Shown here in pieces: positions 47,195 through 53,244 of a DNA stretch of 64,000 nt. The notes under the pieces were generated by a model. It saw only the letters and a program-made list of their open reading frames with translations, had not been told where the DNA came from and did no database searches. A program made the position numbers and the translations under genes. Origin of the DNA: a virus; the IMG/VR virus record IMGVR_UViG_3300035181_002344; one strand, written 5' to 3'. Numbering within the stretch: position 1 is the stretch's first letter; each line of letters opens with the position of its first letter.

Positions 47195-48226
47195 TTATTC
47201 TCCGTGCTTTGGTTTTAATAATTTCCAAATATCTTTAGAATAATCTTTTCCATCAAGCATCTTGAAAACTACAGATTGATATCTTCTTTCTATGTTCATT
47301 ATATATATCGCGGCATTTTTTCTTGGTAAGTGCTTAACGGTCTCAGTTAATATTTTAGAATACAATTCTATAAGCTCATATTGTTTAATGAACGTCTCGT
47401 AGGTATCTAAGAAATATTGCATATATTCATCTGGCAATATATTTATGATATCGTCTAATGGTTTATTTTCTGATAGCCATTGCCATATTAGTTTCTCGTT
47501 GAAATTGGATACAAGTTTATGTAAACGGAGATAATTGTCAAATTTAACTTTAACTCTGTATCCGTCTGGCCATTTTAATACAAAGCCTTCTTCATTTGGA
47601 GTGTTGAGGCTTTTAAGGTATTTGATATAATCATCCTCTGGGGCATCTATTTTTTCAACAACACGAAGGAAATCAAGATTTCTATATTGCTCGATATCTT
47701 CTTCTGTGCTATCTTCGTTGTTAATAATAGCTAATAATACTAATTCGTCTTTTGGATATAAGATAACTATTTGATTGCTCGGACCAATTAATTCAAATAG
47801 GAAGGTATATTGTTTTTCGTGCGATAAAATAAAATCTAATAGTTGCTTATTATTATAAATCAACCTATTTGCTATTCTTGCTTGATCCGAGGTAAAGCTT
47901 CCCCTTGTTGCTATTATCAAATTACTATGATAGACGGTTACAATAATTAGAGATCCGTCAAGCTTTTTATAGATATCTGGTTTTTGAGAAGGAAGCGGAG
48001 TGAAAATCTCTTCGATATTGAAGAACTTTTTGAATGGCCGCGCGATTATTGTTCCTTCACCATCCAGAATTAATCCTCTACATTGTGTTGTTAAATCATC
48101 CCAGGCTTTATCGAATTGACATTTGGGCGTGTAGTTGTAAATCCAAAGGTCATAAGAGAAATGTTTCTGTTTAGTAATAAGACCTTCGCTTATTCTATTT
48201 TCCAGATCTAATAAATTGTATTTCAT
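47195..48226 (-). CDS. T4 Rnl1-like RNA ligase
   Basis: YNY, CRGLI, ARPFKKFFN, KLDGS, ATRGSF.S.Q, EGFV, RVKVK..Y..LH. Confidence 0.92.
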   Translation of the reverse strand: MKYNLLDLENRISEGLITKQKHFSYDLWIYNYTPKCQFDKAWDDLTTQCRGLILDGEGTIIARPFKKFFNIEEIFTPLPSQKPDIYKKLDGSLIIVTVYHSNLIIATRGSFTSDQARIANRLIYNNKQLLDFILSHEKQYTFLFELIGPSNQIVILYPKDELVLLAIINNEDSTEEDIEQYRNLDFLRVVEKIDAPEDDYIKYLKSLNTPNEEGFVLKWPDGYRVKVKFDNYLRLHKLVSNFNEKLIWQWLSENKPLDDIINILPDEYMQYFLDTYETFIKQYELIELYSKILTETVKHLPRKNAAIYIMNIERRYQSVVFKMLDGKDYSKDIWKLLKPKHGE

Positions 48227-48663: not shown

Positions 48664-49323
48664 TTAAGCTAGAAACGAAATATTTGATTCCCTGTTAATA
48701 TCGCCAAATAGTATTGGCAGTTTCTCTTTTAGTTTTAATAACAGCGGATACATCACTTCTCGCATTTGAGGATGTGCATCTCTGGCGGCTCTTAATAAAA
48801 GAATATGTCGCCACTCACGAATATTTGCTGTAATAATAATTTCTGTTTTTAGTGAATTTGGTAAAACGCTTCTAGCTATTTGAGGTGATTCACCAGCTTC
48901 GATTAGAGCATTATAAGTAGCTTCGCAATTTGCCATATGACTTAGCCATAAATCAAAGCTTCTTTCGCTATTTTTTAAATGATCGCAAATATCAATAAAT
49001 GTGATATTGCCATCAAATTTATCATTGGTATAGTTACAATATCTGGTGCTTTCTTGTGTAAAACTTGCTAAGCGATGTCTAACTATTTCATGGCTTACAC
49101 CTCTATCGAAAATAAATTTAACAGATAAGCTTTCATGCTCGAGAACAGATTCATGGTTTTTGCTTATTATCATAGGAATAAATTTCTCATAGCTATTATC
49201 TGTTATTTTATCTTCGCTTTTCCAAGATATTCTTCCAGCTCTTTCGATATTCTTATAAATGCGGAGAATATCTTCTTTCTCAAGAGATGTTAGAATTTCA
49301 AAGCTTGGTTTAATTATTTTCAA
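48664..49323 (-). CDS. thyX: FAD-dependent thymidylate synthase
   Basis: HESVLEH, RGVSHEIVRHR..SFTQESTRY, ARSVLPN, N.REWRH...LR, AHPQMR. Confidence 0.95.
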   Translation of the reverse strand: MKIIKPSFEILTSLEKEDILRIYKNIERAGRISWKSEDKITDNSYEKFIPMIISKNHESVLEHESLSVKFIFDRGVSHEIVRHRLASFTQESTRYCNYTNDKFDGNITFIDICDHLKNSERSFDLWLSHMANCEATYNALIEAGESPQIARSVLPNSLKTEIIITANIREWRHILLLRAARDAHPQMREVMYPLLLKLKEKLPILFGDINRESNISFLA

Positions 49324-50048: not shown

Positions 50049-50438
50049 TTAATTACCTATTTTATAAAAGTTATGATGAAAGTCGCATAGAGTTCTTATC
50101 CATCTTCCATATCGTGGCTTGCCCTGTTCGCCACAAAGTTCGCAGATAGCATAAGAATCATTTTCGGCTTTTTGAATTCTTTCGAATATCTCTTTAGTTC
50201 CTCCATTAATAGAAAAACGTAATCCGCCGAATTTTTCTTCAATATCGAATATTTCTCTATTCCATCCTAAAGCTATTAAATCTTCTATTAGCTTTTTAAC
50301 TAATCCATACCAACCCAGAGCTATTAAGAAAGTATCTGATGATTGAATTAAATTATTAGGATCTGATGACCAAGCATTTTTTAATCCGCCTATACTTACT
50401 ATATAAGCATCTAAATCTTCTTTTGTTACAGTGTTCAT
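50049..50438 (-). CDS. Phage hypothetical protein with C-terminal Zn finger
   Basis: GW..L, EKFGGLRF, CELCG..G...WI.TLC..H. Confidence 0.7.
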   Translation of the reverse strand: MNTVTKEDLDAYIVSIGGLKNAWSSDPNNLIQSSDTFLIALGWYGLVKKLIEDLIALGWNREIFDIEEKFGGLRFSINGGTKEIFERIQKAENDSYAICELCGEQGKPRYGRWIRTLCDFHHNFYKIGN

Positions 50439-50463
50439 TTGGGCAGCTCTTAATATTATTAAT

Positions 50464-50503
50464 AAAAAAAATGCACGTATAGCCAGACCAAACTATACGT
50501 GCA
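50464..50503 (-). terminator. Intrinsic terminator downstream of tandem RNA motifs
   Basis: TGCACGTATAG/CTATACGTGCA 11-bp stem with 8-U tail on minus strand. Confidence 0.8.
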
Positions 50504-50545
50504 GGAGCCCAGTTGACCGTCCAGATATAACTGGGATAATTAGCG

Positions 50546-50689
50546 GTGGATATCGTATCGCTAAACCGCGGGCACGAGGCCCAAGATATTAGAAGGAAGC
50601 GAATACATAGCCACATAAAAATGTCAAGCGGAAATCATACTACTAAAATCTCACCTATAGATAATAGAAGGAAGTAAGTATATAGCCGC
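50546..50689 (-). ncRNA. Two tandem copies (50546-50614, 50628-50689) of a covarying stem-loop RNA motif
   Basis: Same architecture with compensatory base changes and conserved UUCCUUCUA loop segment. Confidence 0.8.
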
Positions 50690-50700
50690 CTAATTAATCA

Positions 50701-50928
50701 TTATTTGTTAAAAATCTTCTTAAACAAGCTTACTTTGTATTTCGGCTCGTAATATTCGCAATCGCCATAGCGATTTGGATAATCAACGCTGTCGACATCA
50801 ATTGTTCTCTGAGATTCACCATATACATAGCTTACCTCTATTCCTACTTGAGGAGCTGCGCAACTATCTCTAAATATGGTTTGTTTAAAATATCTACAAT
50901 CTTTGCAAAAAACTTTCGTTTTTTCCAT
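50701..50928 (-). CDS. Small Cys-rich protein, paralog of 39426-39656
   Basis: KV.CK.C..F, C.APQ.G, DYPN..G.C.YY.P shared. Confidence 0.7.
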   Translation of the reverse strand: MEKTKVFCKDCRYFKQTIFRDSCAAPQVGIEVSYVYGESQRTIDVDSVDYPNRYGDCEYYEPKYKVSLFKKIFNK

Positions 50929-50944
50929 TTAAACGTCTCCAACT

Positions 50945-52993
50945 CTATAAATATTTACCAATTATTTCTGCAGTGTTATATGCAAAGTCCTCATCGAAAA
51001 CAACATCAGCCTTTTGTCTATTTCTTATTATTATGCATTGACCTTTTGCATTGAACTTTAATAATTCATAAACTGTCGGCTTAGTCATTTGAATAATTGC
51101 AGATGCTACTTCAGCAGTTCTGGTAAATGCCCTTTCTGTTATTCGCTCTTGAGTGACTTCCATGTCCATCCAATATATCTTGCCTCTAAATAAATCAATG
51201 AGCACTGGATGATTTGTTCGCGCACCGTTTACTAAATCTATCTTCTCTTTAACTGATTTCGGTTCAAATATTTCTCCGCTATTTGGATTTTTACGCTCCA
51301 TCCAACCGAAGAAACATTCTGACATATCGCAGAATTTCTGATATGTAAATGAATATACTTGCGGGACTATATAACGAATTCCATTTGCTAAAGCTTCTTT
51401 GCAATTGATGTCAATAAATTCAGCAGCACCATTTGGAGCTCGTGTGATATCTCCAGAATGATAAGCAAAGTTACTTCTTAAATTCGTCCATGAAGTCCAA
51501 TTAGTTGTTTGCATTGCTTCATTTAAATATTGAGCGCTTAAATCAATATCAATTCGCTGACTATTATCGCATATCTCATAACCAAGATAATCTTTTGATT
51601 CACTATTATCTTTCCAATAGATAAAGAATCTAAGAGTTTTGGTATTGTCGAAGTTGAATACAGAACCTCTACCAATAGTTCTAATTGATCTTGACGCTGA
51701 GCGTAAAGAGAATGGTATTGTGTAATTTTGTAATTCTGGCGAGATATAAACTTTTGAACCAGCGGGAATATTATTTCTATCCGCATATATTTTAATTAAT
51801 GCGTTATTAATAATATCTATCACTTTAGCTTTGGTTTTCTTTTCTATTATGAAGTTTTCTACAGGATTATCTGTTATGAAAGCCTTAGCTACTTTACCTT
51901 TAGGAATAATTAATCTTTTATCTGTTGCGGATAGAAAGCGAGATCTAGTTTGCAATAATACCTTAGTTGAGATTCCATTAGCAACGCTTTCAAATATTTT
52001 AAGAATTGCCTCTCTATCATTAATCTTTGCATTACGTAATAATCTATGCATATTACGAGCAAGATTACCAGGTCTTGTAGCTAATAATTTGGCCGCATTA
52101 ATTATTTGCCCGCTGCTAAATAAATCTTCTACTTTAGAAAAGAAAGACTTGACTTGATTATCACGCAAAAGCTTAAATGCTTTTGCTGTATCTGGAAACT
52201 GTCTTTTATATTCCCCTGGATGCAAAATCTCACCTAAACGCAAGAATACTTCTCTGCGGATTTTCATTTCTTCGGCATTAATACAGGATTCGAACATAGA
52301 AAGAATTTGTCTGCGTTTTTCTCTACTTAATTTCTTAAAACGTGTATTCTCGGCTAAGGATATATCTCCATCGCTAAGCATAACAGCATATCTTAAAACA
52401 TCTGTGGTTGTCTTAAAGAAACGGCTTATATCAAAGTATTTGGATAGAAAAGCGAGATTTTCTTTATTCGGGATTTCATCTATTGATGATAATATCGGCT
52501 TAATTAAATCTTGATTAGCGGCTATCTCCTCTTTGATATTATCAGAATATTCAACCTTAGAGTTTAATAACTGCTTAAAATAAGCGATCGCGTCTTCTTC
52601 TTTTAATATGTCAATAACAGTAAATTTGCTTTGCTCATCATATAATGCCCGGTTTACTTTCTCATAATCTGGCAAGATTCCAAACCAATAATGAACTAAT
52701 GCATTCATTAATAATTCAAAACTGGTGGCATCTATTACTTGCTTCGGAAAATTTGGATACATCGGATTATATTTAACATGAGCCCCAACTTTTTTACGCA
52801 GATAATAGATTAATTTATCAGCGAGATCGTCTATTTGTGTCTCGGTCATACCGGAAATAGCGACAAATAAATCCTTGCTAAGCGTAAAACCTAAAGATTG
52901 AATATTTTTTAATAATGTTGCCGCTAAAATTTGTTGGCCTAGATAAGGAGTACCATAATTAGTAACTAATACTTTATCGTTTATGATTCTCAT
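50945..52993 (-). CDS. Large helical protein with C-terminal TerD-like domain (likely start 52993)
   Basis: PMYPNFP.QV, TTTDVLR, LHPGE, RPG..AR; TerD-like IDIDLSA, HSGDITRAP.GAAEFIDI; AGGAG RBS before ATG 52993. Confidence 0.75.
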   Translation of the reverse strand: MRIINDKVLVTNYGTPYLGQQILAATLLKNIQSLGFTLSKDLFVAISGMTETQIDDLADKLIYYLRKKVGAHVKYNPMYPNFPKQVIDATSFELLMNALVHYWFGILPDYEKVNRALYDEQSKFTVIDILKEEDAIAYFKQLLNSKVEYSDNIKEEIAANQDLIKPILSSIDEIPNKENLAFLSKYFDISRFFKTTTDVLRYAVMLSDGDISLAENTRFKKLSREKRRQILSMFESCINAEEMKIRREVFLRLGEILHPGEYKRQFPDTAKAFKLLRDNQVKSFFSKVEDLFSSGQIINAAKLLATRPGNLARNMHRLLRNAKINDREAILKIFESVANGISTKVLLQTRSRFLSATDKRLIIPKGKVAKAFITDNPVENFIIEKKTKAKVIDIINNALIKIYADRNNIPAGSKVYISPELQNYTIPFSLRSASRSIRTIGRGSVFNFDNTKTLRFFIYWKDNSESKDYLGYEICDNSQRIDIDLSAQYLNEAMQTTNWTSWTNLRSNFAYHSGDITRAPNGAAEFIDINCKEALANGIRYIVPQVYSFTYQKFCDMSECFFGWMERKNPNSGEIFEPKSVKEKIDLVNGARTNHPVLIDLFRGKIYWMDMEVTQERITERAFTRTAEVASAIIQMTKPTVYELLKFNAKGQCIIIRNRQKADVVFDEDFAYNTAEIIGKYL

Positions 52994-53020
52994 TTTGTGT
53001 CTCCTATTAATTAAATAAAA

Positions 53021-53195
53021 GTATAGCAGGCAACCGGCACGGCCGGCAGCTATATCCAAGATTGGCCCATCGCGGAGGATGACTCACTGCAAGGAATTTG
53101 GTAATCGCATCAAATTACGCATCAGAGACGAACGTTTGTTTAACCCGGGTACAGTCCCTTATCCTTTGTAGCTCTAGGCTACTGCCTGCCACTAT
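53021..53195 (-). ncRNA. Candidate ~170-nt multibranch structured RNA in the leader of the TerD-like gene
   Basis: 10-bp closing stem UGGCAGGCAG/UUGCCUGCUA, internal hairpins, GC-rich versus flanks. Confidence 0.6.
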
Positions 53196-53244
53196 CCTTC
53201 TCTGCCGATTTTATTCAGCATCTTATAAAGAAGAATTTCGTTGT

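Follow-up and report, generated by a model that had tools for sequence, protein, structure and literature searches.

Tandem hairpins in a phage genome belong to a small-RNA family linked to a TerD-family protein, probably as its Y-RNA-like partners

In a 64,000-nucleotide stretch of viral DNA (IMG/VR record IMGVR_UViG_3300035181_002344; this whole stretch is called the window below), two tandem hairpins at positions 50546–50689 are real members of a widespread, apparently undescribed small-RNA family, and this family is linked exclusively, and on the same strand, to a family of large proteins that combine a helical domain with a TerD fold. We consider it probable that the hairpins are genes for stable non-coding RNAs of ~65–70 nt, the dedicated partners of the 682-residue protein encoded close by, with which they would form a ribonucleoprotein resembling that of Ro60 and Y RNA. 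That the protein binds the RNAs directly, that these are processed to a free form and that they take part in RNA surveillance are further steps that we infer.

The source record is a 154 kb uncultured phage of ~33% GC. Both hairpins, and then a terminator, lie within a gap of 262 nt between open reading frames (ORFs) of 75 aa (50701–50928) and 129 aa (50049–50438). The long ORFs around the pair are all on the minus strand, so the RNAs are read on that strand too, and the plus-strand strings given in a preliminary description of the window, which had placed both copies correctly, are the reverse complement of the functional strand. Copy A (50627–50690, minus strand) reads, from 50690 to 50627, 5′-GGCGG CUAU AUACUUAC UUCCUUCUA...UUUUAG UAGUAUG AUUU CCGC(U), with helix P1 formed by GGCGG/CCGCU, an internal loop CUAU/GAUUU and helix P2 formed by AUAC(U)UAC/GUAGUAU; its apical region, UUCCUUCUA...UUUUA, is ~30 nt long and has no payload. 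Copy B (50545–50615, minus strand) reads, from 50614 to 50546, 5′-GUGG CUAU GUAUUCGC UUCCUUCUA...GUUUAG CGAUAC GAUAU CCAC, with P1 GUGG/CCAC, internal loop CUAU/GAUAU and P2 GUAU(U)CGC/GCGAUAC; the minimum free energy fold of its region recovers identical helices, and its apical region (UUCCUUCUA...GGUUUA) carries a short GC hairpin (GGGCC..GCCC). The common plan is thus a P1 of 4–5 bp ending in GG/CC, an asymmetric internal loop, a P2 of 7–8 bp with a bulged U, and an apical region of ~30–37 nt that starts with UUCCUUCUA and ends with UUUA. The two copies form a direct repeat (35 nt at 80% identity, spacing 75 nt) in which, as the preliminary description had it, the stems differ and their pairing is kept, while the CUAU, UUCCUUCUA and AUUU/AUAU segments are conserved in both. 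The strong terminator that it placed after the RNAs is also there, at 50464–50503 on the minus strand, with a 13-bp stem (50503–50472) followed by U8, and it ends the transcript that contains both RNAs.

When the two copies are scored with two models of the motif, R1 and R2, copy A obtains 53.2 bits (E 1e-12) and 47.7 bits (E 1e-10), and copy B 38.5 bits (E 1.6e-8) and 36.7 bits (E 1.2e-7), respectively. R1 matches only copies A and B in the whole 154-kb record. The motif is not a chance resemblance, because R2, built from 126 bacterial copies alone, recovers both window copies and has no further match in the 64 kb. The 15-mer TTCCTTCTAWTATCT has exactly two occurrences in the window, and no more in the whole record. 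No known family accounts for the motif in Rfam 15, which gave chance-level matches only (for the whole window at gathering score, and for 50300–50850 at E up to 10); blastn against phage GenBank found no match for the RNA region, and ARAGORN found no tRNA or transfer-messenger RNA (tmRNA) in the window.

Selection on structure, proposed from the two copies, is borne out by strong covariation in two alignments. In the seed alignment, A2 (51 sequences, chosen with a filter on P1, P2 being left unfiltered), 93.2% of cells are paired compared to 58.2% in shuffles, and both sides have changed at 11 of 14 pairs; P2 alone has double changes at 8 of its 9 pairs. Its covariation score is 0.873 compared to 0.205 for shuffled alignments, a value reached by none of 500 shuffles, and slid controls give 0.12–0.20 (the shuffle baseline is 58–62% across pairing tests). 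The 126 bacterial copies are 96.4% paired with a covariation score of 0.866, in an alignment that leans toward structure because it was fitted to the model. The family plan consists of P1, an internal loop CUA(U)/RNUUU, a P2 of 8 bp closed by an invariant C-G pair, and an apical region UUCCUUCUA...UUA with a median length of 28 nt (range 18–81). Nucleotides that never or hardly ever vary are GG-CUA-U, C-UUCCUUCU-(A), UA-G and R-N-UUU-CC; GGCUAU is found in 126/126 bacterial copies, and UUCCUUCU is an invariant 8-nt single-stranded pyrimidine stretch kept across phyla. A third, apical helix (CUA/UAG) was considered and rejected, as it comes down to two conserved U-A/A-U positions with no continuation.

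The association of the RNAs with the protein family, for which the preliminary description looked to co-occurrence with homologues of the gene at 50945–52993, was examined in 161 loci that encode a homologue, 81 from phages and 80 from bacteria. A search for related loci with the single 704-aa or 129-aa protein yielded nothing, and an alignment-based search succeeded. The bacterial set spans Bacillota, Planctomycetota, Bacteroidota, Sericytochromatia, Saccharibacteria, Chloroflexota, Acidobacteriota, Armatimonadota, Pseudomonadota and others. Even a plain regular expression detects the motif in most loci, invariably on the gene strand. With R1, 80 of the 81 phage loci yield 292 copies and 79 of the 80 bacterial loci 126 copies, every one of them on that strand (418 copies across 159 of 161 loci). 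One of the two loci without a match has just 90 nt downstream of the gene. By comparison, 419 kb of control phage DNA gave one borderline R1 match, and in five whole bacterial genomes (5–7 Mb) matches occur solely beside the gene, with no orphan copies. Of the outcomes that the preliminary description named as refuting, neither a match to a known Rfam family nor a lack of association with the protein family was seen. The closest homologue (46% identity) lies on a 346-kb phage contig, where three motif copies begin 9 nt past the stop codon, with unrelated stems and the same CUAU, UUCCUUCUA and AUUUCC segments. The 46 IMG/VR loci that share the 16-mer CTTCCTTCTAWTATCT, a number close to chance by estimate, were tried as further family members and rejected, since only one has even a borderline model match.

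In bacteria, the side of the gene on which the motif lies differs between clades. When it lies upstream, the last copy ends ~0–40 nt before the start codon; when it lies downstream, as in Bacteroidota and Lachnospiraceae, it begins 7–16 nt after the stop codon. In Paenibacillus there are two copies upstream, and ~10 nt separate the second of them from the start codon. The motif of Priestia megaterium is preceded by a good sigma-A-type promoter (TTTACA ... TGGTACAAT), placed such that the transcript would begin with the motif's first base; a terminator-like hairpin and its U run then separate the RNA from the gene, which has no conserved neighbours. One Bacteroidota genome has an extended P1 that, with the U7 after it, serves as terminator of the gene itself. 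Phage loci carry a mean of 3.6 copies (2–9), distributed over both sides of the gene, and in 48 of the 81 the module sits inside tRNA gene arrays, with 234 tRNAs that are all on the gene strand, compared to none in 46 control loci; some phage copies begin 2–4 nt after a tRNA. As a whole, these arrangements suit a stable small RNA that is produced along with its protein, and suit a leader or riboswitch less well.

Several other features of these RNA-gene islands were recorded. ARAGORN lists tRNAs with a CUA anticodon (as tRNA-Pyl) in four phage loci (L114, L119, L120 and L122, with two in L114), which are possible amber suppressors and hint at TAG recoding in those phages. Phage tmRNA genes (L055:1786–2097; L084:5478–5837) share their islands with the TerD-family gene and the small RNAs, and a tRNA with a four-base anticodon (gaga) at L104:2373–2449 may be of frameshift type or an artefact. 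A locus binned as a Ruminococcus metagenome-assembled genome (L197) has 11 tRNA genes, all on the gene strand, with 5 motif copies, and looks like a phage contig.

Some relatives carry a recognisable payload in the apical region. Among 186 distinct parsed copies, 23 have an apical region of at least 60 nt, and in 8 of these a T arm (GGUUCGARUCC) is followed by a hairpin and then by a D arm (UAGCUCAGUUGGYAGAGC), a permuted tRNA-like layout that has been described for YrlA (PMC4201824). The Rfam YrlA model (RF02553) gives several such inserts 33–43 bits (E 2e-6 to 1e-3), where the gathering score is 69. At one phage locus (L122) the YrlA alignment covers the T arm, hairpin and D arm well and the outer stem of the model lands on P2, and the GNCGAA Ro-binding motif is absent from this alignment. 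These inserts indicate that the family joins a new handle with, in some members, a known Y-RNA payload.

The gene for the partner protein (50945–52993, minus strand) begins within an ORF of 704 aa that opens with TTG at 53059; the protein itself is probably 682 aa, because the ATG at 52993 has an AGGAG ribosome-binding site (53005–53001) 8 nt upstream. It has more than 1000 homologues; the scan of species genomes gave at least 587 confirmed matches, and that of viral contigs 157. Pfam gave no match for the window protein, PHROGs matched it to an unnamed family (phrog_33734), and the NCBIfam profile NF041916 (RING_SCO0854) matched its C-terminal two thirds below the cut-off. An AlphaFold2 (AF2) model has a mean predicted local distance difference test (pLDDT) score of 82.8, or 84.8 when the N-terminal 465 residues are folded alone, and it divides the protein into an N-terminal alpha/beta part, helical repeats at ~154–430, a TerD beta-sandwich at 471–655 and C-terminal helices. 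The TerD fold matches 2qz7_B (Z 13.2) and 2kxt (Z 11.9) over 154 residues each, with Foldseek E values of 2e-6 to 6e-4; by sequence, Pfam TerD matches one of 35 family members (E 0.005) and does not match the window protein.

With the full model, structural searches other than Foldseek rank Ro60 proteins next after TerD, namely Deinococcus Rsr (2nvo_A; Z 7.9, 307 residues aligned), the Ro60 of Thermus phage phiLo (9l5y_B; Z 7.9) and Xenopus Ro (1yvp_A; Z 5.7, and 5.7–5.9 over the full-length and N-terminal searches). For the N-terminal domain alone the top match is again phiLo Ro60 (Z 8.1, 228 residues across 156–446). This predicted resemblance of the helical domain is weak and is a lead, not proof; together with the YrlA-type module in some relatives, it supports the analogy with Ro/Y RNA that the preliminary description had drawn. 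A sequence search of the PDB returned no Ro60 chain, the ESM Atlas gave for the N-terminal domain only unnamed viral clusters, under 0.9, and structure searches of the protein found no nuclease or known toxin fold.

Little else in the window appears to belong to the system. The spacer between copy B and the terminator (50504–50544, minus strand) has a possible CCCAGUU/AACUGGG hairpin and is not a motif copy, as R1 does not match it with filters off. The 75-aa ORF (50701–50928, minus strand), which is rich in cysteine (CKDC ... C ... C) and lies between the protein gene and the RNAs, has no match in Pfam, PHROGs or NCBIfam and no tblastn match in the 161 related loci, and may stand outside the system. 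A T4 Rnl1-type RNA ligase (PF09511, E 1.5e-17) and ThyX (PF02511, E 1.9e-42) are encoded 2–3 kb downstream, at 47195–48226 and 48664–49323 on the minus strand; the ligase is not part of the system, since it recurs at only one of the 161 loci (L179). None of ORF75, ORF129, ORF227, ORF540, Rnl1 and ThyX is conserved beside the gene in those loci. A GC-rich stretch upstream of the protein gene (53010–53205, minus strand) was considered as a multibranch RNA and rejected, having no motif copy, no Rfam match and a fold z-score of -0.41, no better than shuffles.

Several results weigh against a Ro60/Y-RNA-like particle. The 161 loci are not 161 independent observations, because many of the phage loci are near-duplicates, though the spread across phyla is unaffected by this. 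Both window copies lack the tRNA-like payload. Other HEAT-like proteins align to residues 304–433 only, with Z 6–7.7, and the Z for Ro60 is not well above these values. Pfam TROVE (PF05731) matches neither the window protein nor any of the 35 members at E up to 1, and hhalign gives a probability of 0.25% for the family alignment (A1) against a TROVE alignment (A5). The particle also leaves the role of the invariant UUCCUUCU unexplained. Lastly, P1 of the second copy in Paenibacillus alvei overlaps the GGAG of the ribosome-binding site, which fits cis-regulation as well.

This last observation, with the constant location of the motif on the gene strand within a few hundred nt of the gene and its role as the 3′ terminal hairpin of the mRNA in Bacteroidota, could be read as the mark of a cis-acting element of the protein's own mRNA, that is, an operator for self-repression of translation or for message stability, with no separate small RNA. 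We find this unlikely, given that the copies in phages, as many as 9, flank the gene on both sides and are interspersed with tRNA genes, that the Priestia motif has its own promoter and terminator ahead of the gene, that the 75-aa ORF separates gene from RNAs in the window, and that apical payloads such as tRNA-like domains would be useless to an operator. The two readings overlap, because a cis element too would need the protein to bind, and autoregulation through the same handle, likely where the motif overlaps the ribosome-binding site, is compatible with a dedicated small-RNA partner. The highly conserved unpaired nucleotides of the internal and apical loops, the tandem copies in 5′ leaders of Bacillota genes and the terminator after the motif in Priestia might instead suggest a riboswitch aptamer, often tandem, that senses a small ligand, for example a metal ion or a nucleoside-like metabolite of Ter-type systems, and thereby regulates the gene that follows. 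It is hard to reconcile with such control that the motif lies 3′ of the gene in the window, in Bacteroidota, in Lachnospiraceae and in many phages, that the apical region varies from 18 to more than 100 nt with unrelated inserts, that phage copies are spaced like the surrounding tRNA genes, and that only one gene family adjoins the motif, and we give the riboswitch very little credence.

We think it similarly improbable that the RNAs and the protein form a type III toxin-antitoxin-like pair, in which RNA repeats neutralise a toxic protein and phage copies act as decoys. Tandem RNA units do precede a protein gene, and in Priestia a terminator divides the two; the system turns up in phages and in mobile contexts; and the original ter system has been linked to phage inhibition (PMC7824862). 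However, the copies are diverged and covarying where processed repeats would be near-identical, those of the window lie downstream of a 682-aa protein, and one copy, often on the 3′ side of the gene, is all that many bacteria have; phages, moreover, carry the protein gene along with the RNAs, and the protein resembles neither a nuclease nor any known toxin in its fold. An antisense or sponge RNA, in which the loop UUCCUUCU pairs with purine-rich targets and the protein is only a chaperone, would give the invariant single-stranded stretch a purpose, and by eye the loop is complementary to Shine-Dalgarno-like sequences, for instance AGGAGGAA with one G-U pair. Yet the same loop is kept in Bacteroidota, where initiation led by Shine-Dalgarno sequences is rare, no target was identified, and the invariance of the loop together with that of the distant internal loop fits recognition by a protein better, so that the chance of an antisense function seems to us slighter still.

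Under the preferred reading, a dedicated small-RNA partner of the protein, the two RNAs would form the 3′ end of the protein operon, a minus-strand transcript that stops at the terminator at 50503–50472. The handle, made of P1 with its GG/CC end, the internal loop, P2 and the single-stranded UUCCUUCUA and UUA, would be the recognition site for the protein, and the slot between UUCCUUCUA and UUA would accept a variable payload: next to nothing in copy A, one short hairpin in copy B and, in some relatives, a complete permuted tRNA-like domain of the YrlA kind that would recruit other factors. By analogy with Ro60 and Y RNA, the RNA would gate or retarget the action of the protein on other RNAs, and the TerD domain, of a Ca2+-binding type, would replace the metal-binding vWA domain of Ro60. 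More tentatively, and with somewhat more doubt than confidence, we suggest that this is a second lineage of Ro-like ribonucleoproteins in many bacterial phyla and jumbo phages, either separate from TROVE/Ro60 or diverged beyond sequence recognition, in which one handle docks interchangeable payloads, from none to a full tRNA mimic, on a helical-repeat protein. TerD may then couple RNA handling to Ca2+ or to a nucleotide-like signal, and phages would enlarge the RNA array in their tRNA islands to retarget the particle during infection.

To our knowledge, no bacterial particle of this kind other than Ro60/Y RNA has been studied well, and what that one does is still under debate. If our reading is true, the design of handle plus payload is a general solution, found with a second, sequence-unrelated protein family that keeps its own covarying small RNA and sometimes the same tRNA-mimic payload. 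It would also supply a large protein family, listed in databases only as 'TerD family' or 'cytoplasmic protein', with a name and a partner that can be tested, and Rfam with a new RNA family. Its location within the tRNA islands of phages suggests a part in the struggle for tRNA and translation while the host is infected, and culturable hosts (Priestia megaterium, Paenibacillus and Brevibacillus) make the system directly testable.

In the literature on TerD with RNA motifs, noncoding RNA, TROVE, SCO0854 and YrlA we found no description of the system; a survey of jumbo phages mentions both TROVE and TerD and treats them separately (PMC7824862). Type III toxin-antitoxin arrays (ToxI/ToxN) are alike in having tandem structured RNAs co-oriented with one protein gene, in some loci with a terminator between them, but the units here have diverged and covary, many genomes have just one, their place is often 3′ of the gene, and the large protein is without a nuclease fold. 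The TerD proteins of ter operons (PF02342; 2kxt, 2qz7, 3ibz) share the beta-sandwich at 471–655 (Z 11.9–13.2), whereas here a helical domain of ~450 residues precedes TerD, there is no ter operon context, the partner is an RNA, and 34 of 35 members have diverged too far in sequence for a Pfam TerD match. By sequence, NF041916 (MXAN_6230/SCO0854 family RING domain-containing protein) strongly matches the window protein (E 3e-92) and that of Priestia (P0022; E 1.5e-144) at profile positions ~385–755, although the scores of 310 and 483 bits stand against a cut-off of 600 and the matches miss the first ~385 of 842 profile positions.

There is also a close parallel with Ro60 (Rsr) and YrlA/YrlB of bacteria and phages (RF02553; Chen et al. 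2014, PMC4201824; phiLo Ro60, PMC12135203), where small RNAs, often several, likewise lie within a few hundred nt of one large gene for an RNA-binding-type protein and on its strand. In both systems the 5′ and 3′ ends of the RNA pair into a stem that bears a conserved handle, either a bulge or an internal loop, and the distal part is built of modules, at times a permuted tRNA-like domain; the protein joins a helical-repeat domain, here a predicted one with Ro60 as its best, though weak, structural match, to a C-terminal domain of metal-binding type. The RNAs here adjoin their gene on its strand, as Y RNAs do (within ~4 kb of a TROVE/Ro60 gene), but the partner is not TROVE by sequence; the window protein is without the TROVE signature and has TerD in place of vWA/MIDAS. 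The RNAs differ as well. Near the 5′ end of YrlA the motif GNCGAAN0-1G is the proposed Ro60-binding site (PMC4201824), whereas the handle here is GGCUAU...UUCCUUCUA...UUA...RNUUUCC; GNCGAAN0-1G does not occur in the window copies, whose 5′ strands read GGCGGCUAUAUAC and GUGGCUAUGUAUUC. RF02553 has no match in the window at its gathering score (69 bits), nor around the motif at E up to 10, and most copies, including both in the window, are without the tRNA-like domain. The two systems also meet in one genome, that of Paenibacillus tuaregi (L187; P0219), and because it encodes both a true Ro60/TROVE protein and this TerD-family protein, the latter with two motif RNAs, the two proteins are not interchangeable.
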